This document shows positions 1,973-64,000 of a stretch of DNA of 64,000 bases, in pieces. The DNA is from Dehalococcoidia bacterium (GTDB lineage: Bacteria; Chloroflexota; Dehalococcoidia; Lucifugimonadales; UBA3495). The notes under the pieces are model-generated. The model was not told where the DNA came from. It saw only the letters and a list, made by a program, of their open reading frames with translations, and ran no database searches. The translations under genes and the position numbers were made by a program. The stretch spans positions 2,034,802-2,098,801 of the forward strand of contig CBDHFS010000002.1 of assembly GCA_965262735.1 (NCBI GenBank), given 5' to 3'. Within the stretch, counting starts at the first letter, position 1, and each line of letters opens with the position of its first letter.

Positions 1973-2401
1973 ATGTCGAAGGCGGGGCGGCTTCTTGACA
2001 AATACTGGGTTCTTTACTACGTGGTTTATGCAGGATTATCCGTATTTCATCTGATTCAATTATGGAACCGTCTGCCCCAAGAAAGCCGCTCCGACCGTGT
2101 AGTCGCCTTTTTCGGTACAACCGGTGCGCTGTCCGATGCGTTCGGGACCTCGGCTGGCATCGCCGTGTTGTTCCTAGTCTTTGTGGAAGGGATAGGACGT
2201 ATGGCTTTGCTCATTCCGGCAACGATTAAGAGAATCAAGCGGGAAGGGAAGCGGGAAGGGAAGCGGGAAGAACGCAGGGCATCCCGCCAACGCATGAAAG
2301 AGGCGTTGGAACGGTTCGGTGTTGAGCAAGACGGGGTTAAGCATCTTCCGATGACTCCCGAAGTCCAGGCTTTCCTGAATGTCGTTTCAGATCCCGATTG
2401 A
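1973..2401 (+). CDS. hypothetical membrane protein with Lys/Arg/Glu-rich C-terminal tail
   Basis: 142-aa ORF. Hydrophobic N-terminal half (YWVLYYVVYAGLSVFHLI, AGIAVLFLVFVEGIGRMALLIPA), then IKRIKREGKREGKREERRASRQRMKEALERFG. Its 3-prime part is duplicated downstream. Confidence 0.5.
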   Translation: MSKAGRLLDKYWVLYYVVYAGLSVFHLIQLWNRLPQESRSDRVVAFFGTTGALSDAFGTSAGIAVLFLVFVEGIGRMALLIPATIKRIKREGKREGKREERRASRQRMKEALERFGVEQDGVKHLPMTPEVQAFLNVVSDPD

Positions 2402-2634
2402 ACGGAACCTCGTCTTTGTGGAAGGGATAGGACGTATGGCTTTGCTCATTCCGGCAACGATTAAGAGAATCAAGCGGGAAGGGAAACGGGAAGAACGCAG
2501 GGCATCCCGCCAACGCATGAAAGAAGCATTGGAACGGTTCGGTGTTGAGCAAGACGGGGTTAGGAATCTTCCGATGACTCCCGAAGTCCAGGCTTTCCTG
2601 AATGCCGTTTCAGATTCCGATTGAGCGGAACCTC
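2177..2634 (+). repeat. tandem duplication (2 units of ~223-235 bp) covering the 3-prime cassette of the 1973-2401 gene
   Basis: gtctttgtggaagggataggacgtatggctttgctc... starts at 2177 and again at 2412. The copies differ by one 12-bp GCGGGAAGGGAA unit and a few substitutions. Confidence 0.9.
2436..2624 (+). CDS. free-standing tail cassette ORF (62 aa), duplicate of the C-terminus of the upstream gene
   Basis: ATG at 2436 preceded by GGAAGGGATAGG. Encodes MALLIPATIKRIKREGKREERRASRQRMKEALERFGVEQDGVRNLPMTPEVQAFLNAVSDSD. Translation is unproven. Confidence 0.35.
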   Translation: MALLIPATIKRIKREGKREERRASRQRMKEALERFGVEQDGVRNLPMTPEVQAFLNAVSDSD

Positions 2635-12286: not shown

Positions 12287-12448
12287 GCAGGGTGAACGGA
12301 TTGAATCGGGCCGCTGGTGGCGAGACCGGAAATATCCCCGAATATCCCTGCGCGCGTCTCTGGCGGTTAGAAGAATTTCAGCGGCGTATGTTACAATCTC
12401 GGTAACTATACAACACGCTCCCAAGTCCCGAAAACGAGGTGGTTGGTT

Positions 12449-14731
12449 ATGGCTAACATCGTATTGTCCAACACGGATTATAACGTGGTTGGGACTCGTC
12501 CCGTCCGTCCCGACGGCGCCGACAAGGTGACCGGCAGGGCCAAGTACGGCGGCGACTTTCAGATGAGCGGACTGCTCCACGGGGAGGTGCTGCGCAGTCC
12601 CCACGCCCACGCTAGAATCAAGTCTATTGACACCAGCAAGGCGGAGGCGTACCCGGGCGTCAGGGCCGTCGTCACGGTCAAAGACCTGCCAATTTTCCAG
12701 ATGGAAAACCCCGACCAGGGGATGCGCCACGCCAGCGACAACGTTTTGGCCCGGGACAAGGCGCTCTACAAGGGCCACCCCATTGCGGGGGTAGCGGCAG
12801 TAAATCCCCACGTTGCCGGGGTCGCGGTAGGGCTGATTGAGGTGGAGTACGAGGTGCTGCCCTCGGTGACTGACGTGCAGTCGGCCATGAAAGACGGCGC
12901 CCCTCTGCTGCACGACGAGATGACCACCGACGAGTTGGGCGAGGCAACCGAAAAGCACAGCAACATAGCAACCCACTTCAGCTACGAGTTGGGAGACACC
13001 GCCAAAGGGTTTGCCGCGGCCGATGTGGTGGTGGAGCGGGAGTTCTCCACGACGATGGTCCACCAGGGGTACATTGAGCCTCAAAACGCTTCGGCGCTGT
13101 GGAACGCCGACGGGCAGTTGAAGGTCTGGACCAGCACCCAGGGCGCTTTCGCGGTCCGGGATTCTCTGGCCAAGGTGCTGGACCTGCCGGTGTCGAAGAT
13201 TACCGTCGTACCCATGGAGATCGGCGGCGGGTTCGGGGGGAAGATCCCCATATACCTGGAGCCGCTGGCGGCGTTGCTGTCCCGCAAGACCGGCCAACCC
13301 GTCAAGCTGCTGATGTCCCGCATCGACGTTTTCGAGAGCACCGGCCCCACTTCCGGCTCCTGGATGAAGATAAAGATGGGCGCCACCAACGACGGCACGA
13401 TAACCGCCGCCGAGGCTACCATCGCGATGGAGGCCGGCGCCTTCCCCGGGTCTCCGGTGACGATGGGCGCGCAGTGCATCTTCGCCCCCTACGACATTGA
13501 AAACGTGCGCTCCCAAGGGTACGACGTGGTGGACAACAAGCCCAAGGTCGCTCCCTACCGGGCGCCGGGGGCGCCCATTGCCGCTTTCGGCGGCGAGCAA
13601 GTGGTGGACGAACTGGCCCGAAAGGTTGGCATGGACCCGCTGGAGTTCCGTCTGAAGAACGCTTCCAAAGAAGGCACCCGCCGGGTTGACGGCCCGGTCT
13701 ATCCCCGCATCGGCAACGTTGAATGCCTGGAAGCGGCCCGCAACACCGAGCATTACAACACGCCCCTCACCGGACCGAACCGGGGCCGGGGCGTAGCTAC
13801 CGGGTTCTGGTTCAACATCGGGATGCCTTCCAGTTGCAGCATCGGGGTCAACCCCGACGGGACCATCAGCCTGGTAGAGGGTTCGACCGACATCGGCGGC
13901 ACCCGCGCGTCCATTGGGATGCAGGCTGCCGAAGTGCTGGGCATTCCCGCCGAGGACGTTCACCCCAGCGTGGCCGACACCGACTCGGTGGGCTATACCT
14001 TCCTGACCGGCGGCAGCCGGGTGACCTTCGCCAGCGGGTGGGCGGCCTACGAGTGCGCCCAGGACGTGAAGCAGAAGATGATTGATCGCGCTGCCAGCAT
14101 CTGGGACGTTTCGGCGGAGGACGTCGAGTTGGTTGACGGCACCTTTCAGCACAAGTCCGAGCCGGAACTGCGCATAGGATTCAAGGAGTTGTCCGGGCAG
14201 CTCAACCGCACCGGCGGTCCTATCTCCAGCCAGGTCAGCGTCGACCCCAAGGGGGCGGGCGGGGCTTTCAGCACCCAGATGGCCGACGTTGAGGTAGACC
14301 CGGAGACTGGCAAGGTGACGGTACTCCGGTTCACCGCGCTTCAGGACGCAGGCAAGGCCATTCACCCCAGCTACGTGGAAGGCCAGATGCAGGGCGGCGT
14401 GGTCCAGGGCATAGGCTGGGCGCTCAACGAAGAGTATTTTATGAGTGACCAGGGATCCATGGTGAACTCCAGCTTCCTGGACTACCGGATGCCCACCAGC
14501 CTGGACCTGCCGATGATTGACACGGTGATTGTGGAAGTTGCCAACCCGGGCCATCCCTTCGGGGTTCGGGGCGTCGGCGAAGTTCCCATAGTGCCTCCAA
14601 TGGCCGCCATCGCCAACGCCATCCACGATGCCCTGGGCACCCGCATGGAGCACCTGCCCATGTCGCCCGGCGCGATCCTGGAAGCCTTGTGGGAGAAGGA
14701 CGGAGCGCCCGAACAGCAAGCGGCGGACTAG
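12449..14731 (+). CDS. xanthine dehydrogenase/aldehyde oxidase family molybdopterin-binding (large) subunit
   Basis: VGTRPVRPDGADKVTGRAKYGGD N-terminus, EIGGGFGGK motif, C-terminal GVRGVGEVPIVP. GAGGTGG RBS lies before the ATG at 12449. Confidence 0.85.
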   Translation: MANIVLSNTDYNVVGTRPVRPDGADKVTGRAKYGGDFQMSGLLHGEVLRSPHAHARIKSIDTSKAEAYPGVRAVVTVKDLPIFQMENPDQGMRHASDNVLARDKALYKGHPIAGVAAVNPHVAGVAVGLIEVEYEVLPSVTDVQSAMKDGAPLLHDEMTTDELGEATEKHSNIATHFSYELGDTAKGFAAADVVVEREFSTTMVHQGYIEPQNASALWNADGQLKVWTSTQGAFAVRDSLAKVLDLPVSKITVVPMEIGGGFGGKIPIYLEPLAALLSRKTGQPVKLLMSRIDVFESTGPTSGSWMKIKMGATNDGTITAAEATIAMEAGAFPGSPVTMGAQCIFAPYDIENVRSQGYDVVDNKPKVAPYRAPGAPIAAFGGEQVVDELARKVGMDPLEFRLKNASKEGTRRVDGPVYPRIGNVECLEAARNTEHYNTPLTGPNRGRGVATGFWFNIGMPSSCSIGVNPDGTISLVEGSTDIGGTRASIGMQAAEVLGIPAEDVHPSVADTDSVGYTFLTGGSRVTFASGWAAYECAQDVKQKMIDRAASIWDVSAEDVELVDGTFQHKSEPELRIGFKELSGQLNRTGGPISSQVSVDPKGAGGAFSTQMADVEVDPETGKVTVLRFTALQDAGKAIHPSYVEGQMQGGVVQGIGWALNEEYFMSDQGSMVNSSFLDYRMPTSLDLPMIDTVIVEVANPGHPFGVRGVGEVPIVPPMAAIANAIHDALGTRMEHLPMSPGAILEALWEKDGAPEQQAAD

Positions 14732-14851
14732 GTTGACCCGAATGTCTCGCGGGCTCCCGCACGTCAACGGAAGGACCGGAGTGCGGGCAGCCCGCCTGAT
14801 TGCAGCGGCCACCGGCGGGGCTAACCGTTGCCGGCGCAACAATTTGCAGGG

Positions 14852-15310
14852 ATGACCACGCGGCGCCGGGAACACCAAGACGGAGAAACACGTTCCGGAA
14901 TACTGAGCGTTCCCGCCAGCGCCATCCACTGGTTCTACTCCCTGTTCAGCATCGGGACGGTCTATTTGACCATCGCCAACACCCTGAAAGAAGCGGCAGC
15001 GGTCAACGCGGTCGGGTGGCTGGAGATACAGAGCATAGCTACCGTACAGTTAGTGCAGGCAGCCGGAGCGTCGGCCGCAGGCGCAGCCATAATCGTTGAA
15101 GGTGGAAACATGGTACTCGCTGCATTGTTGACCGAGAAGAAGCTACGCAAAGCCAGGGAAGAAGGCCTCGAGCAGGGGCTTGAGCAGGGGCTTGAGCAAG
15201 GCCGCGAACAGGTACGGCTTTGGGAAGCATGGAATCGGCGTAGGGTGGAGGCCGAGGCCCGTGGAGAAACTTTCACCGAGCCGCCGCCGACCAACGGCCA
15301 CCACAACTGA
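14852..15310 (+). CDS. hypothetical membrane protein, head gene of the tandem tail-cassette array
   Basis: Hydrophobic segments IHWFYSLFSIGTVYLTIANTL and AAGASAAGAAIIVEGGNMVLAALL, then the charged tail KKLRKAREEGLEQGLEQGLEQGREQVRLWEAWNRRRVEAEARGETFTEPPPTNGHHN. The start (14852 vs 14828) is uncertain. Confidence 0.45.
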   Translation: MTTRRREHQDGETRSGILSVPASAIHWFYSLFSIGTVYLTIANTLKEAAAVNAVGWLEIQSIATVQLVQAAGASAAGAAIIVEGGNMVLAALLTEKKLRKAREEGLEQGLEQGLEQGREQVRLWEAWNRRRVEAEARGETFTEPPPTNGHHN

Positions 15311-15347
15311 ACATCACGGCAAGCCTGACCCGGTTGAAGGTGGACAC

Positions 15348-15521
15348 ATGGTACTCGCAGCATTGTTGACCGAGCAGAAGCTACGCAAAGCCAGGGAAGA
15401 GATAAGCGCTCTTTGGGAAGCATGGAACTGGCGCAGGTTGGAGGCCGAGGCCCGTGGAGAAGCCTTCACCGAGCCGCCGCCGACCAACGGCCACCACAAC
15501 GGAACATCACGGCAAGCCTGA
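15348..15521 (+). CDS. tail cassette ORF 2 (57 aa)
   Basis: MVLAALLTEQKLRKAREEISALWEAWNWRRLEAEARGEAFTEPPPTNGHHNGTSRQA. AAGGTGG lies 5 nt upstream of the ATG. Confidence 0.35.
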   Translation: MVLAALLTEQKLRKAREEISALWEAWNWRRLEAEARGEAFTEPPPTNGHHNGTSRQA

Positions 15522-15540
15522 CCCGGTTGAAGGTGGACAC

Positions 15541-15735
15541 ATGGTACTCGCAGCATTGTTGACCGAGCAGAAGCTACGCAAAGCCAGGAAAGAAGGCCTT
15601 GAACAAGGCCGTGAAGAGGTACGGCTTTGGGAAGCATGGAACCGGCGCAGGCTGGAGGCCGAGGTCCGTGGAGAAACTTTCGCCGAGCCGCCGCCGACTA
15701 ACGGCCACCACGACGGAACATCACGGCAAGCCTGA
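15541..15735 (+). CDS. tail cassette ORF 3 (64 aa)
   Basis: MVLAALLTEQKLRKARKEGLEQGREEVRLWEAWNRRRLEAEVRGETFAEPPPTNGHHDGTSRQA, with its own RBS. Confidence 0.35.
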   Translation: MVLAALLTEQKLRKARKEGLEQGREEVRLWEAWNRRRLEAEVRGETFAEPPPTNGHHDGTSRQA

Positions 15736-15754
15736 CCCAGTTGAAGGTGGAAAC

Positions 15755-15976
15755 ATGGTACTCGCAGCATTGTTGACCGAGAAGAAGCTACGCAAAGCCA
15801 GAGAAGAAGGCCTTGAACAGGGCCTCGAACAAGGGCTTGAGCAAGGCCGTAAAGAAGTAAACGCTCTTTGGGAAGCAGGGAACTGGCGCAGGCTGGACGC
15901 CGAGGCCCGGGGAGAAGCCTTCACCGAGCCGCCGCCGACCAACGGCCACCACAACGGAACATCACAACAGGCCTGA
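15755..15976 (+). CDS. tail cassette ORF 4 (73 aa)
   Basis: MVLAALLTEKKLRKAREEGLEQGLEQGLEQGRKEVNALWEAGNWRRLDAEARGEAFTEPPPTNGHHNGTSQQA, with its own RBS. Confidence 0.35.
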   Translation: MVLAALLTEKKLRKAREEGLEQGLEQGLEQGRKEVNALWEAGNWRRLDAEARGEAFTEPPPTNGHHNGTSQQA

Positions 15977-15994
15977 TCCGGTTAGTGGGGACAC

Positions 15995-16195
15995 ATGGTA
16001 CTCGCAGCATTGTTGACCGAGAAGAAGCTACGCAAAGCTTGGGAAGAGGGCCGCGAGCAAGGGCTTGAGCAAGGCCGCCAACAGGTACGGCTTTGGGAAG
16101 CATGGAACCGGCGCAGATTGGAGGCCGAGGCCCGTGGAGAAACTTTCACCGAGCCGCCGCCGGCCAACGGCCACCACGACGGAACTCCTGGATAA
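15995..16195 (+). CDS. tail cassette ORF 5 (66 aa)
   Basis: MVLAALLTEKKLRKAWEEGREQGLEQGRQQVRLWEAWNRRRLEAEARGETFTEPPPANGHHDGTPG. Weaker RBS (GTGGGG). Confidence 0.3.
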   Translation: MVLAALLTEKKLRKAWEEGREQGLEQGRQQVRLWEAWNRRRLEAEARGETFTEPPPANGHHDGTPG

Positions 16196-16221
16196 TTTTT
16201 ACAGCAAGCGGAGAAAGAAAA

Positions 16222-16770
16222 ATGGCTAGAGTGCCTTTGGCTACCCGCGACACCATGACCCCGGCCGGGCAGCAAGTTTGGGACGAGATTGAAACCAGCC
16301 GCGGCGGTGTTGCCCGCAACTACGCCGCCATCCTCAACAATCCCGAGGCCGCTAAGTACATGGCCACCCTGGGTGGGTACGCCCGGTTTGAAACCCCGCT
16401 GGACCCACGGGTTAAGGCCCTGGCGGTGCTGACCGCTGCCCGCGAGGCCGGCGGCCACTACGTATGGACGGTGAACCAACGCAGTGCCAAAGAGGCGGGC
16501 ATTGACGACGCCGTTATCTCAGCCATCCTGGAGTACCGGGCGCCGTCTGGACTCGACAGCAAGGATGCAGCGGTGGTCCAGTTTGTCCTGGAGTTGCTGC
16601 GGCAGCACCGGGTCAGCGACGCGTCCTTTGAAGCGTTGCGCTCGCTGGTCGGGGACGCCGGCTTGATTGACGTTCTGGTGGTCGTGGCCTACTACCACGG
16701 GTTGGCCCACACCCTGCAGGCGCTGGACGTGGAACTTCCCGAAGGCGTCGCTTCCGCCCTGACCTACTAG
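16222..16770 (+). CDS. carboxymuconolactone decarboxylase (CMD/AhpD-like) family protein
   Basis: MARVPLATRDTMTPAGQQVWDEI..., paralogous to 48389-48937 (MARVPYVSREELDADGQRIYDQI). GGAGAAAG RBS. The track start at 16093 reads through the repeat array. Confidence 0.65.
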   Translation: MARVPLATRDTMTPAGQQVWDEIETSRGGVARNYAAILNNPEAAKYMATLGGYARFETPLDPRVKALAVLTAAREAGGHYVWTVNQRSAKEAGIDDAVISAILEYRAPSGLDSKDAAVVQFVLELLRQHRVSDASFEALRSLVGDAGLIDVLVVVAYYHGLAHTLQALDVELPEGVASALTY

Positions 16771-16818
16771 GGAATCCCTGAGCAACGGGGCGCAGCTTGT
16801 TATGCTGAACCGACCGGG

Positions 16819-16845
16819 GCCGGGGTAAGCCCCGGCTCCATTTTT
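16819..16845 (+). terminator. rho-independent terminator after the CMD gene
   Basis: gccgggg-taag-ccccggc hairpin followed by tccattttt. Confidence 0.7.
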
Positions 16846-59107: not shown

Positions 59108-62100
59108 GTGCGAAGGCCGCCAATGCGCCTTCCGGTAAGTTTGGGGTGGAAAGCCGGGTTGCTGCTGGCCCTGGCTATCCAGTCCTTTGCACCCCAGGCG
59201 TCAGTCTCGGTCAACGCCCAAGCCGTCCAGGACGTTGGCGTCACCGCCATCGAACTCCCCACCGGCCCGGTCAACCAGGGCGACACCGCAGAGATAAAGG
59301 TGACTATCGAAAACCTGGGTTCCTCCACCGCTTCCGTCATGGTAATTCTTAATTATCTTGATGCAGATTACACGGCCGCAGGTGTCGGGCAAACGATGCA
59401 AGACGTTGCGGCAGGCCAGACCTCGAAAGCGTCCTTCTCCTGGGACACCACCGGCGTCCCCCTCGGCAGCTACATTTTCCAGGCAGTAGCGTTGTCGGGT
59501 GAAAACCTCGACGGCGAGGACGGCAACTATGAGAATAACTCCCTGATTTCAACAAGCTCGGTCACCATTCGCACCCCGCCGCCCTACGCTGTTGCCGTCA
59601 CCGCCGTCGATGTCCCCGCCGGGCCAGCAATCCAGGGTGAAACCGTGGACGTGGAGGTGACCGTCAAGAATCAGGGGACTTCCGATGCCAACGCCAAGAT
59701 AACGCTTTTGTACGTTCCGGCCGAGGGACAACCGGGAATCGCCGCCGAGAAAACCGTTGCCATCGCCGCCGGAGCCACCGAAACGGTGACCCTGTCCTGG
59801 GACACATCCGGCACCACCCTGGGCGTCTACACCATCAGGGCCGGCGCCACCCTGGTTGAGGACAGCAGCGTTGCCCATTTCTTGATTTCGACAACTTCCA
59901 TTACCATTGTCACCCCGCCTCCGTATGCCGTTGCCGTCACCGCCGTAAAGGCTGCCAGCGCCACAGCAATCCAGGGGGCCACCGTGGACGTGGACGTGAC
60001 CGTCAAGAATCTGGGGACATCCGACGCCAACGCCAAGATAACGCTTTTGTACGTCCCCGCCGAGGGCCAACCGGGAATCGCCGCCGAGAAAACCGTTGCC
60101 ATCGCCGCCGGAGCCGCCGAAACGGTCACCCTATCGTGGGACACATCCGACTCGACGCCGGGCGTCTACACCATCAGGGCCGGCGCAACCCTGGTTGAGG
60201 ACACTGACGTTGCCCATTTCCTGGTTTCGACAACTTCCATCACCATTGTCACCCCGCCTCCGTATGCCGTTGCCGTCACCGCCGTAAAGGCTGCCAGCGC
60301 CACGGTAACCCAGGGGGCCACCGTGGACGTGGACGTGACCGTCAAGAATCTGGGGACATCCGACGCCGACGCCAAGATAACGCTTTTGTACGTTCCCACC
60401 GAGGGCCAACCGGGAATCGCCGCCAACAAAACCGTTGCTATCGCCGCCGGAGCCGCCGAAAAAGTCACTCTATCCTGGGATACTTCCGACTCGACGCCGG
60501 GCGTCTACACCATCAGGGCCGGCGCCACTTTGGTTGAGGACACCAGCGTTGCCGACTTTCGGGACGCGGCATCCACCGTCACCATTAGCACCCCGCCTCC
60601 CTATGCCGTTGCCGTTACCGCCGTGGATGTTGCCAGCGCCACGGCAACCCAGGGTGAAGTCGTGGACGTGGAGGTGACCGTCAAGAATCTGGGGACATCC
60701 GACGCCAACGCCAAGCTAACCCTCCTGTACGTTCCCGCCCAGGGCCAACCGGGAATCGCCGCCGAGAAAACCGTTGCCATCGCCACTGGAGCCGCCGAAA
60801 CGGTCACCCTATCGTGGGACACATCCGACGCTACGCCGGGTGTCTATACTATCAGGGCTGGCACCACCCTGGTTGAGGACGCTGACGTTGCCCATTTCCT
60901 GGTTTCGACAACTTCCGTCACCATTAGCGCCCCGACCTATGGCGTTTCCATCACCGCCTTTGATGTCCCATCCGGTCCGGCAACCCAGGGCTATGTCGTT
61001 GACGCGGACGTGACGGTCAAGAACCTCGGTTCAGTCGCGGCAATGTTCACGGTGACGCTCTTTGACCAACCCGCCGGTGGCACGGAAGGGACTGCGGACG
61101 AGGAAACCGTCGAGATTGCCCCGCCGCCACCAAGAAAGTCACCCTATCTTGGGACACATCCAACGCTACGCCGGGCGCCCACACCTTCAGGGCCGGCGTC
61201 ACTTTGGTTGATGACACCAACGTTTCCGACTTCCTGGACTCGGCAGCTACCATCACCATTAGCCCGCCGCCTTATGCTGTTGCCATCACCGCCGTTGAGG
61301 TTGCCAGCGCAACGGCAATCCAGGGGGCCACCGTGGAGGTGGAAGTGACCGTCGAGAATCAGGGGACATCCGACGCCAACGCCAAGATAACGCTTCTGTA
61401 CGTTCCCGCCGAGGGCGAACCGGGAATCGCCGCCAAGAAAACCGTTGCCATCGCCGCTGGAGCCACCGAAACGGTCACCCTATCCTGGGATACATCCGGC
61501 ACCACCCTCGGCGCTTACACCATCAGGGCCCGCGCAACCCTGGTTGAGGACAGCACCGTTGCCGATTCCTTGGACGGGGCATCCACCATCACCATTAGCG
61601 CTCCACCGCCCTATGCCGTTGCCGTCACCGCCGTTGAGGTTGCCAGCGCAACGGTAATCCAGGGGGAAACCGTGGACGTGGAGGTGACCGTCAAGAATCT
61701 GGGGACATCCGACGCTAACGCCATGATAACGCTTCTGTACGTCCCCGCCGAGGGCCAACCGGGAACCGCCGCCGAGAAAACCGTTGCTATCGCCGCCGGA
61801 GCCGCCGAAACGGTCACTCTATCGTGGGACACAGCCGACGCCAACCCCGGCGCCCACACCATCAGGGCCGGCGCCACCCTGGTTGAGGACACCAATGTTT
61901 CTGACTACCGGGACGCGGCATCCACCATCACCATTAGCGCCCTGACCTATGGCGTTTCCATCACCGCCTTTGATGTCCCATCCGGTCCGGCAACCCAGGG
62001 CTATGTCGTTGACGCGGACGTGACGGTCAAGAACCTCGGTTCAGTCGCGGCAAGGTTCACGGTGACGCTTTTTGACCAACCCTCCGGTGGCACGGAAGGA

Positions 62101-64000
62101 ACTGCGGACGAGGAAACCGTTGAGATTGCCGCCGGCGCCACCAAGACGGTCACCCTATCCTGGGACACATCCGACGCTACGCCGGGCGCCCACACCTTCA
62201 GGGCCGGCGTCACTTTGGTTGATGACACCAACGTTTCCGACTCCCTGGACTCGGCAGCCATCATCACCATCAGCGTCCCACCGCCCTACGCCGTTGCCGT
62301 CACCGCCGTCGATGTCCCCGCCGGGCCAGTAACCAGGGGGGACACCGTGGACGTGGGCGTGACCGTCGAGAATCAGGGAACCTCCGACGCCAACGCCAAG
62401 ATAACGCTCCTGTACGTCCCCGCCGAGGGCGAACCGGGAATCGCCGCCGAGAAAACCGTTGCTATCGCCGCCGGAGCCACCGGAACGGTCACCCTGTCCT
62501 GGGATACTTCCGACGCCGCCCTCGGCGCACACACCGTCAGGGCCGGCGTCACCCTGGTTGAGGACACCAACGCTGCCGACTCCCGGGACGCGGTATCCCC
62601 CATCACCATTATCCTACCGCCTTATGCCGTTGCCGTCACCGCCGTCGATGTTCCCGCCGAGCCGGTAGCCCAGGGGGAAACCGTCGACGTGGTCGTGTCC
62701 GTCGAGAATCAAGGGACCTCCAACGCCGCCGCCATGATAACGCTTCTGTACGTCCCCGCCGAGGGCGAACCGGGAACCGCCGCCGAGAAAACCGTTGCCA
62801 TCGCCGCCGGCTCCACCGAAACGGTCACCCTGTCCTGGGATACTTCCGACGCCGCCCCCGGCGCCTACACCATCAGGGCCGGCGCCACCCTGGTTGAGGA
62901 CAGCAATGTTTCCGACTCACAGGACGCGGTATCCACCATCACCATTAGCCCACCGCCCTACGCCGTTGCCGTCACCGCCGTGGACATAGCCAGCGCGACC
63001 GTCACCAAGGGCGACACCCTGGATGTGGACGTGACCGTGGAGAATCGGGGGACCTCCGACGCCAACGCCGTGGTCACGGTTCTGTACGTTCCCACCGACG
63101 GCCAACCGGGAATCGCAGCTGCGGAAACTGTCGCCATCGCCGCAGGGGAGTCGGAGACCACTACCCTGTCCTGGAATACCTCCGAGGCCACGCCCGGCGC
63201 CTACACCATTAGGGCCAGCGTCACCCTGGTTGAGGACACCGACGTTTCCGATTCCCGGGACGCGTTGTCCACCATCACCATTGGGACCCCAACCTATGGC
63301 GTCGTCGTAACCTCCGTTGATGTCCCCACCGGGCAGGCAACCCAGGGCGACACGGTGGACATACTTGTGGCCATTGAAAACCGCAGCTCGGTCGCGGCAA
63401 TGTTTGAGGTGACGCTCTTTTACCAACGCGCAGGTGGTCAGGAAGGAATCGCCGCTAAGGAAACCTTCAAAATCACCGCTGGCTTTACCAAGGGTCTCAC
63501 CATGTCCTGGGATACATCCGGCGTTACGCCTGGCGTTTACCAGGTCGGCGCCAAGGTGATGTTGGTGGGAGTGGCAGGCGTTGACGATTCCCGGATTTCT
63601 GAAACGTCCATCACTATCATCGCCCCCGTAACCTACGGCGTCTCCATCACCGCCATTGATGTCCCCGCCGGGCCGGTAGCCCAGGGGGAAACCGTTGACG
63701 TTGACGTGACCATTGAGAACAGCAGCTCAGTCGCGGCAATGTTCGCAGTGACGCTCTTTTACCAACCCGCCGGTGGCCAGGAAGTAACCGCAGCAGAGGA
63801 AACCGTCGAAATCGCCGCTGGCGCTATCGAAACGGTCACCCTGAATTGGGATATATCCGACGCCACCTTCGGCGTGTACACCATCAGGGCCAAGGCGATA
63901 CTAGCGGACGTGGCAGGTGTTGACGACGTTGCCGATTCCCGGATTTCTGAAACGTCCATCACCATCAGCGCCCCCGTAACCTACGGCGTCGCCGTCACCG
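59108..64000 (+). CDS. giant secreted protein made of tandem CARDB-like domains (partial, runs off the window; one frameshift near 61120)
   Basis: Signal peptide MRLPVSLGWKAGLLLALAIQSFAPQASVSVNA. At least 15 repeats of ~113 aa (PPPYAVAVTAVDVP.GP..QGETVDVEVTVKNQGTSDANAKITLLYVP....TVAIAAGATETVTLSWDTS....YTIRAGATLVED). The frame changes from 2 to 1 at 61118-61122. Confidence 0.8.
59576..64000 (+). repeat. coding tandem repeat, period ~339 bp, at least 13 units
   Basis: Repeat starts at 59576, 59915, 60254 and so on. Neighbouring units are near-identical at the DNA level. A 3-unit block (60925-61938) is re-duplicated at 61939-62950. Confidence 0.9.

Follow-up and report, generated by a model that had tools for sequence, protein, structure and literature searches.

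A tandem array of candidate free-standing tail cistrons behind a two-helix membrane protein gene in a Dehalococcoidia bacterium

Why should the 3' end of a gene for a small membrane protein be repeated in tandem, with a start codon and an intact reading frame in every copy? The question is raised by a locus at positions 14852-16195 of the window, the 64,000-nucleotide stretch of DNA analysed here (C2:2034802-2098801), which belongs to the 4.1-Mb, two-contig, 62% GC genome of a Dehalococcoidia bacterium. Five tandem units of 193-240 bp each fill window positions 15090-16215. Their ATGs lie at 15110, 15348, 15541, 15755 and 15995, which gives periods of 238, 193, 214 and 240 bp, and Tandem Repeats Finder (TRF) reports periods of 193 and 214 on the array with scores of 762 and 730, in agreement with the five-fold array that an earlier sequence-only reading had described. 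The repeated stretch begins at about 15095 and extends some 20 nt beyond the stop, and four further copies follow unit 1 head to tail, the five units having a mean column identity of 82%. Unit 1 is the 3' end of a gene for a 152-aa two-helix membrane protein (14852..15310 in the list of open reading frames (ORFs)), in frame with its hydrophobic head, and units 2-5 are intact ORFs of 57-73 aa, both as that reading had it. The answer towards which we lean, with slightly better than even confidence, is that the tail would be an autonomous cistron, and that its arrays would be amplifications of dosage or of variants, produced by unequal recombination and retained by selection.

The putative free cistrons lie, like the full-length gene, on the + strand: cistron 2 (15348..15521, 57 aa) has the shortest spacer and an EISAL variant, cistron 3 (15541..15735) is 64 aa long, cistron 4 (15755..15976, 73 aa) has the longest (GLEQ)n spacer and an EVNAL variant, and cistron 5 (15995..16195) has 66 aa. 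The tail N-terminus reads MVLAALLTE. The motif GAAGGTGGA(A/C)AC stands before the ATGs of units 1-4, its Shine-Dalgarno (SD)-like core GAAGGTGGA being placed at 15098-15106, 15336-15344, 15529-15537 and 15743-15751 respectively; the claim that every unit has this motif does not extend to unit 5, where a degenerate, weaker TTAGTGGGGACAC is found (degenerate SD AGTGGGGA at 15984-15991). In unit 1 the SD-like motif and ATG (15098..15112, + strand), which together make up the proposed start of tail 1, encode E-G-G-N-M within transmembrane (TM) helix 2. Each stop is followed by the next ATG after 18-19 nt, or after 37 nt in the case of unit 1, which has an early TGA, and it lies only about 5 nt upstream of the next unit's ribosome-binding-site (RBS)-like motif, and not about 20 nt as given previously. 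The early stop itself, attributed in the sequence-only reading to a G-to-T change, is borne out by the alignment, the position reading AAC-TGA in unit 1, AAC-GGA in units 2-4 and GAC-GGA in unit 5.

Differences in unit length are confined, again as had been noticed, to a 12-nt (GLEQ)n block and the EISAL/EVNAL segment. The block is a tandem coding repeat that specifies a GxxxG-type helical spacer (15164..15205, + strand; TRF rows at 15170-15198 and, for the equivalent block of unit 4, at 15803-15848), and alignment gaps indicate that it grows and shrinks from unit to unit. Units can further be told apart by the peptides EISALWEAWNWR (unit 2), EVNALWEAGNWR (unit 4) and AWEEGR (unit 5), and the 3' end of unit 5 is unlike that of the others because this unit abuts the original downstream flank. 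In the product of the full-length gene, TM helix 1 follows a short basic N-terminus and is joined by a loop to TM helix 2, which is rich in Ala and Gly and runs into tail copy 1. An ortholog with 81% identity (P0001) begins at the same Met, and the gene's own start (ATG 14852; region 14827-14854) has only a weak SD, TTTGCAGGG-ATG, so that, to judge from GAAGGTGGA against TTTGCAGGG, tails may initiate more efficiently than the head. No terminator-like hairpin occurs on the coding (+) strand between the units; the first such hairpin, at 16816-16839, comes after the downstream gene of the CMD/AhpD family, and head, tails and CMD gene are therefore probably carried on one transcript.

The array is one member of a family. 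Searching the source genome with one tail, and then with a hidden Markov model (HMM) of tails, yields 14 family loci, half of which have tandem tails (5 at 14852-16195, and 4, 3, 2, 2, 2 and 2 at the other six). All share a plan in which a short N-terminus, TM1 and a loop lead to a TM2 ending in (T/V)-E-(G/V)-x(1-3)-M, and this junction is followed by a basic stretch, a variable spacer and then W..W..RR..AE..G..F.EPPP; a different distal end (..ERFGV..LP.TPEV..FL) is found at two loci, window 1973-2401 and C2:2177876. The former is a full-length gene (1973..2401, + strand; distal tail ..ERFGV..LPMTPEV..FL) with a free tail cistron of 62 aa behind it (2436..2624, + strand), preceded by GGAAGGGATAGGACGT-ATG. 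The sequence-only reading had noted the similar layout of locus 1973-2634 and taken it to be unrelated, but it is a paralog of the same family: it shares 43% identity over 116 aa with the paralog at C2:2134200, and a family HMM from which it had been left out matches it at E = 2e-9.

Beyond this genome, a profile search of 1.84 billion representatives returned 1,992 clusters (at 50% identity) at E <= 1e-3 and 872 at E <= 1e-10. Members occur in 18 of the 41 related genomes, where a single genome gives as many as 25 matches, in just 3 of 300 genomes evenly sampled from the remaining phylum, and also in SAR202, Tepidiformaceae and many metagenome-assembled genomes (MAGs) of Candidatus Poribacteria. 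The head-plus-array architecture is common among relatives, the opposite of the absence that the sequence-only reading had set down as counting against it: of 20 loci retrieved from related genomes, nearly all those suspected of extra tails do have them behind the head, two 4-tail arrays (G019) and one 3-tail array (G003) among them, and one locus of a Poribacteria chromosome (L088) has an array of 3 tails. Three syntenic orthologs from one metagenome (L021, L022 and L024, each with the order XDH large subunit, family gene, CMD) have 2, 2 and 1 tails against the 5 found here. Tails within one array are more alike than tails elsewhere, and the duplications are therefore independent and local, or else the copies are being homogenised. 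An assembly artefact was rejected on account of the divergence of the copies and the recurrence of the same architecture in independent assemblies, single-contig genomes included. An exact pattern scan of metagenome contigs for the 5' end of the unit found no near-identical strain, and literature searches for a described equivalent of the head-plus-tail-array found none.

The case for a separate cistron turns on the junction between head and tail. In 92 scored tails the start column is occupied by ATG (83), TTG (6) or GTG (2), the remaining tail being mis-registered. When the junction residue is Leu it is always encoded by TTG, although TTG accounts for 17% of Leu codons in the genome, and Met is found at the junction in 86% of 228 diverse family members. 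A strong SD-like 5-mer is located at -20..-4 in 69 of the 92 tails (75%), compared with 6.9% for a background of 15,363 internal in-frame ATGs in long ORFs, and all 14 loci of the source genome have the motif-plus-start arrangement with an SD-like match of a 4-mer or longer. The 3' end of the 16S rRNA is canonical (CACCUCCUU), and neighbouring genes use SD sequences. There is thus a conserved in-frame start codon, with initiation signals, at a domain boundary, which is the pattern expected of a protein produced in both tethered and free form.

The places at which family genes have been duplicated or broken lie close to this junction. Breakpoints were scored by BLAST, and for the first duplication only, since the method is noisy for later copies; in about 23 scorable arrays the 5' end of the duplication falls 1-38 codons upstream of the start (median about 9) and the 3' end 1-96 nt past the stop. 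Within a single orthologous group, the gene is fused in G001 (L074, G001:C57; ..ATREVV-TTG..), has a TAG three codons before the TTG in G007 (L075, G007:C2:576500-577500) and a TAG two codons before it in G004 (L078, G004:C3:54800-55800), and in the source genome (C2:2181864-2182216) has a frameshift, such that the head stops at a TGA inside AGGAGGTGA with the TTG 4 nt later, a layout which in sequence terms is the classic coupling arrangement. Read from these sequences, the last three are independent splits, all confined to the three codons ahead of the tail start, the whole gene being about 130 codons long. A head-less tail at C2:1400531 (C2:1400375-1400662; ORF of 53 aa) retains GTAGAGGGATACGAA-ATG, and its orthologs are full length in G002 (L049) and G005 (L066). 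Many tail-only ORFs in Poribacteria start at the same point of the junction, and at two loci there (L106 and L109) GGA has become TGA three codons before the Met. In a metagenomic relative of 226 aa (P0009) the head, a tail 1 with a frameshift and tail 2 are read as a single ORF.

The free tails themselves appear to evolve as coding sequence, with purifying selection acting in the frame of each tail. For the tails of the array at 14852-16195, pairwise dN/dS is 0.15-0.60, free-versus-free pairs included, and over tail pairs as a whole it is 0.1-0.6; the free second tails of G005 and G007 (grouped by amino-acid changes) differ with pS 0.48 and pN 0.06. Variable sites fall at the three codon positions in the ratio 13:3:12 among the free tails of the array, 32:25:62 across all arrays with at least two free tails (p = 6e-5) and 105:80:218 between head-fused and first free tails (p = 3e-18), counts which, coming from paralogs, are not phylogenetically independent, and whose p-values overstate significance. 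This last caveat belongs with several others that weigh against a separately translated tail. The units are mosaic, their 5' halves grouping as (u1,u4)(u2,u3) and their 3' halves as (u1,u3,u5)(u2,u4), and since they recombine, some of the constraint may be borrowed from unit 1: the apparent purifying selection could in part reflect gene conversion from the head-fused copy. About a quarter of tails, unit 5 included, are without a strong SD-like motif, and 14% of family members have no Met at the junction. The E-[G/V] residues behind the SD-like motif could be conserved for reasons of protein function or structure, and some free copies hold part of TM helix 2 and may start farther upstream.

What kind of protein is this? 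An AlphaFold2 model made with 40 family sequences has a helix at residues 22-51, a continuous helix at 56-136 and a disordered F.EPPP end (mean pLDDT 71, about 90 over the W..W..RR segment; pTM 0.35). Both hydrophobic helices are flanked by basic residues, on the N-terminal and C-terminal sides, and by the positive-inside rule the topology would be N-in/C-in with a cytoplasmic tail. The family is large and lacks a name, and its members are modelled as small inner-membrane proteins having two TM helices, the second extended as a long cytoplasmic helix. The hydrophobic part of a free tail amounts to the seven residues with which it begins (MVLAALL), and in this model the tail would be a soluble single helix in need of a partner. 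The spacer is a GxxxG repeat at the array locus and an EGRQ or KREG repeat in paralogs, and in two members (P0003 and P0007) is replaced by 4-7 copies of a REEETLR heptad.

The family has no sequence match in Pfam, NCBIfam or PDB, apart from sub-threshold matches of the spacer alone to FliH and Yae1_N. Against the FliH models (NCBIfam NF004267, NF004270 and NF009925) the window protein reaches 15.7 bits where NF004267 has a 293-bit cut-off, over residues 98-121 of the GLEQ repeat only, and the FliH C-terminal domain is absent from it; the repeat region is matched in 10 of the 40 family members, with a best E of 1e-10. Yae1_N/deca-GX3 (PF09811) scores 12.4 bits with head plus tail 1 and 14.4 bits with unit 4, below its 27.5-bit threshold, and matches 6 of 40 members at E <= 0.1 (best E = 4e-5). 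For phage holin family 2 (PF23778; Phage_holin_2) the window protein is without a match, and 7 of 40 members match at E <= 0.1 (best E = 0.01). Judged by the sequences matched, all of these are similarities of repeat or composition only. FliH/YscL and Yae1-Lto1 do share with the present family a helical (xxxG)n segment in which E, Q and R are abundant and the number of repeats differs widely from homolog to homolog, whereas the membrane head and the W..W..F.EPPP end occur in the present family alone. In Yae1-Lto1 the GX3 repeats reportedly mediate pairing of the two proteins. In FliH the number of GxxxG repeats is reported to vary among species (PMC2674601).

How might such arrays arise and be kept? 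The explanation that we favour would start from a conserved internal start at the membrane/cytoplasm junction, where SD-like codons for E-[G/V] precede an ATG, GTG or TTG; it is because of this start that the tail can be regarded as an autonomous cistron. The tail would be made either attached to the head or free, with internal initiation yielding some free tail even from a single-copy gene. Tandem duplication from just upstream of the start to just past the stop would then add self-sufficient tail cistrons, and unequal recombination among units, together with slippage in the 12-nt spacer repeat, would expand, contract and reshuffle the array (tail copy number at the orthologous loci is 1, 2, 2 and 5). 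Selection would keep the extra cistrons where more free tail, or tails of other spacer lengths, were useful. They would raise the ratio of free to anchored tails and supply varied spacer lengths, and free tails may pair with anchored ones via the GxxxG/coiled-coil helix, either cooperating with them or competing with them for the ligand of the conserved end.

Viewed in this way the mechanism is a variation on two established phenomena, proteoforms that arise from internal starts and the amplification of genes in tandem, and it occurs in an undescribed family. In-frame internal starts have been reported to be widespread in bacteria (bioRxiv 10.1101/520783), and in MthK free RCK domains are produced from an internal Met107 and co-assemble with the tethered ones (PMC9440719). 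The likeness to MthK lies in a membrane protein whose cytoplasmic C-terminal part would also be made free from an in-frame internal start. There is no relationship in sequence or fold, the module here being a single long helix and not an RCK domain, and the free form is here encoded additionally by 1-4 extra tandem cistrons; unlike in MthK, both internal initiation and co-assembly are things that we infer. Among the interpretations offered in the sequence-only reading, that of free peptides or of a dosage or amplification system is the best supported, judging from the retained start codon, the SD-like motif retained in most tails, the open frames and the purifying selection.

The arrays could instead be neutral debris. 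Duplication from inside the gene to past the stop leaves the first copy intact, and the repeats would be by-products of frequent tandem duplication and slippage at a recombination-prone 3' end, while concerted evolution with the first copy kept the ORFs open. Units that visibly exchange sequence, slipping 12-nt spacer repeats, a copy number that varies among close relatives, degenerate distal copies with altered N-termini (L026 copy 3, L035 copy 2 and copy 3 of locus D in the source genome) and the weakened SD of unit 5 are all in keeping with such an origin. Debris should, however, show 5' breakpoints anywhere in a head of about 85 codons, or in the tail, and not in the interval just upstream of the start where the scored ones lie; nor does it lead one to expect a start column restricted to ATG, GTG or TTG, the deficit of nonsynonymous change between the second tails of G005 and G007, a codon-position bias that persists in free-versus-free comparisons, or independent splits and head deletions that all spare the tail cistron. 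We consider it unlikely. A decidedly improbable alternative, in our judgement, is a reservoir of silent cassettes, in which the head-fused tail alone is expressed and the downstream copies serve as donors for swapping the spacer; this corresponds to the tail-switching interpretation of the sequence-only reading. Neisseria pilE/pilS and Borrelia vlsE are systems of this type, with an expression locus and tandem 5'-truncated cassettes. The layout here fits, inasmuch as behind a full gene come tandem copies without its 5' part, with conserved flanks, a variable middle and recombination between units, and both the mosaic units and the tail 1-to-tail 2 reading frame of P0009 lend the idea weak support. 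In contrast to those systems, the copies have low dN/dS, and they carry an RBS-like motif, a start codon and intact frames, none of which silent donors need: units 2-4 have GAAGGTGGA-N4-ATG, and 91 of the 92 tails an ATG, GTG or TTG. The tail, with a K/R-rich stretch after TM helix 2, is predicted to be cytoplasmic and under no obvious diversifying pressure of the kind that acts on surface-exposed products, the few differences between copies are mostly synonymous or concern spacer length, and split and orphan variants point to tails that stand alone. A search for inverted repeats yielded none of note, and the neighbouring ORFs, which were not scanned against a protein library, show no recombinase gene.

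A toxin/inhibitor pair, of holin-antiholin or toxin-antitoxin (TA) type, would be a special case of the tail cistron explanation, one that is possible, weakly supported and in our estimate quite unlikely: head plus tail would form a membrane lesion, free tails would bind the anchored tail and keep it inactive, and arrays would buffer the inhibitor dose. The small size of the protein, its pair of TM helices and the high charge of its cytoplasmic tail, the holin matches at E of about 0.01, a weak SD for the head beside a strong SD-like motif for the tails, and multi-copy genes distributed patchily across two phyla would all suit it. The holin matches are nevertheless far under any threshold, the 14 chromosomal loci, several of them syntenic, stand beside ordinary catabolic operons in a manner atypical of TA or holin genes, and the surroundings show no sign of phage (neither PADLOC nor PHROGs was searched). 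That programmed frameshifting or stop-codon read-through should fuse the units into a single multi-tail protein is very improbable indeed. The periods of 238, 193 and 214 are each 1 mod 3, offsetting the units by +1 nt, the ORFs 15180-15521, 15454-15735 and 15599-15976 are open in the frame of the next unit through part of the preceding one, and a like pattern is seen at C2:1333; but an open alternative frame is unremarkable at 62% GC in units that are copies of one another, the frame relations are not conserved (units 4 and 5 are in frame), the tails of L021 are separated by two in-frame stops, at other loci the start is immediately preceded by a stop, and no slippery site is seen in the sequence. 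Selenocysteine at the early TGA of unit 1 was also considered and is not favoured, the other units having GGA at that position, with no search made for a SECIS element. Two further candidates were rejected. For an invertible shufflon, all units are direct repeats, the sole inverted pair in 14600-16400 is 20 nt long with 80% match, and the neighbours are XDH, CMD and amidohydrolase genes; for a diversity-generating retroelement, variable columns involve all four bases with no A-specific pattern, and no reverse transcriptase was found among the neighbouring genes. Debris, silent cassettes, retroelement, shufflon and recoding all fit the data worse than does the tail cistron model.

The array also bears comparison with CdiA-CT and Rhs polymorphic toxins, in which orphan C-terminal modules lie downstream of the main gene. 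Common to both is a main gene followed by tandem fragments that repeat its 3' region, with short shared homology. Here, in contrast, distinct toxin domains and immunity genes are both absent, and the copies are near-identical, each with a start of its own.

What do the surroundings of the array say about function? Its neighbours are XDH, CMD and amidohydrolase genes. Directly upstream, and outside the repeat, is a gene for an XDH/CODH-family molybdopterin large subunit (12443..14731, + strand), which is a recurrent partner of the family, and downstream is the CMD/AhpD-family gene (16223..16770, + strand). Three of the ten XDH/CODH-family large-subunit genes of the genome (C2:2047244-2049532, C2:3087071-3089407 and C2:1553688-1556189) directly precede a family member on the same strand, where the chance expectation is about 0.04 (a rough figure that assumes about 3,800 genes for 4.1 Mb), and the arrangement is kept at L021, L022 and L024. 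Two other family loci lie beside DUF1800-like and DUF1501-like genes, recognised by eye from end sequences. Gene order of this kind suggests a possible role for the membrane protein in tethering or organising certain soluble enzymes, and that XDH large subunit and family member may be a functional pair.

Repeated sequences adjoin some family loci. One of about 150-200 nt is found beside three of those in the source genome (C2:452401-452622, C2:2162886-2163086 and C2:2133992-2134153); it translates as ..NCSGLRGAEWLMAEYGGWVTLGD.SPKPPEKSGSWLK.., and an Rfam scan gave a tRNA only. It is probably a miniature inverted-repeat transposable element (MITE), and its adjacency is not significant at the MITE density of this genome. 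In Poribacteria MAGs, dispersed tail-only ORFs of 67-79 aa (L093, L102, L105, L106, L107 and L109) have near-identical ends (..RRLEAEARGETFTEPPPGHDSLKPRKKKRFIFF) and conserved downstream sequence, and several of them border on a dispersed repeat, with the translation ..FTFGIKIWYN..ITLADI.SVPA.., by which the head appears to have been truncated; to go by these sequences, the family may in Poribacteria be linked to a mobile or repeat element. Elsewhere in the window, a tandem repeat at 59562-63360 (period 339 bp, 11.3 copies, 79% matches, TRF score 3900) presumably codes for a protein of repeated domains of about 113 aa.

A bolder version of the tail cistron explanation, which we put forward as speculative and rather unlikely, is that the arrays act as a stoichiometry dial in Dehalococcoidia/SAR202 and Poribacteria: the ratio of free to anchored tails and the mix of spacer lengths would be tuned as unequal recombination rapidly enlarged, shortened and reshuffled the array, much as at a contingency locus but acting on dosage instead of on/off state, and at some loci the conserved tail end might dock Mo-hydroxylase large subunits at the membrane. 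The recurrent place of family genes directly after XDH-family large subunits is a lead to function. The tail ORFs are called inconsistently by gene callers, so annotation of these genomes is affected. If the tail is indeed a cistron of its own, a sizeable family of about 2,000 clusters has been overlooked in uncultivated Dehalococcoidia/SAR202 and Poribacteria, and it would provide a rare case of a conserved in-frame internal start backed by sequence comparison alone, for which splits, head deletions and cistron amplifications would be natural experiments converging on one junction. It would also mean that bacteria could alter the dosage of part of a protein by amplifying the internally initiated module alone.

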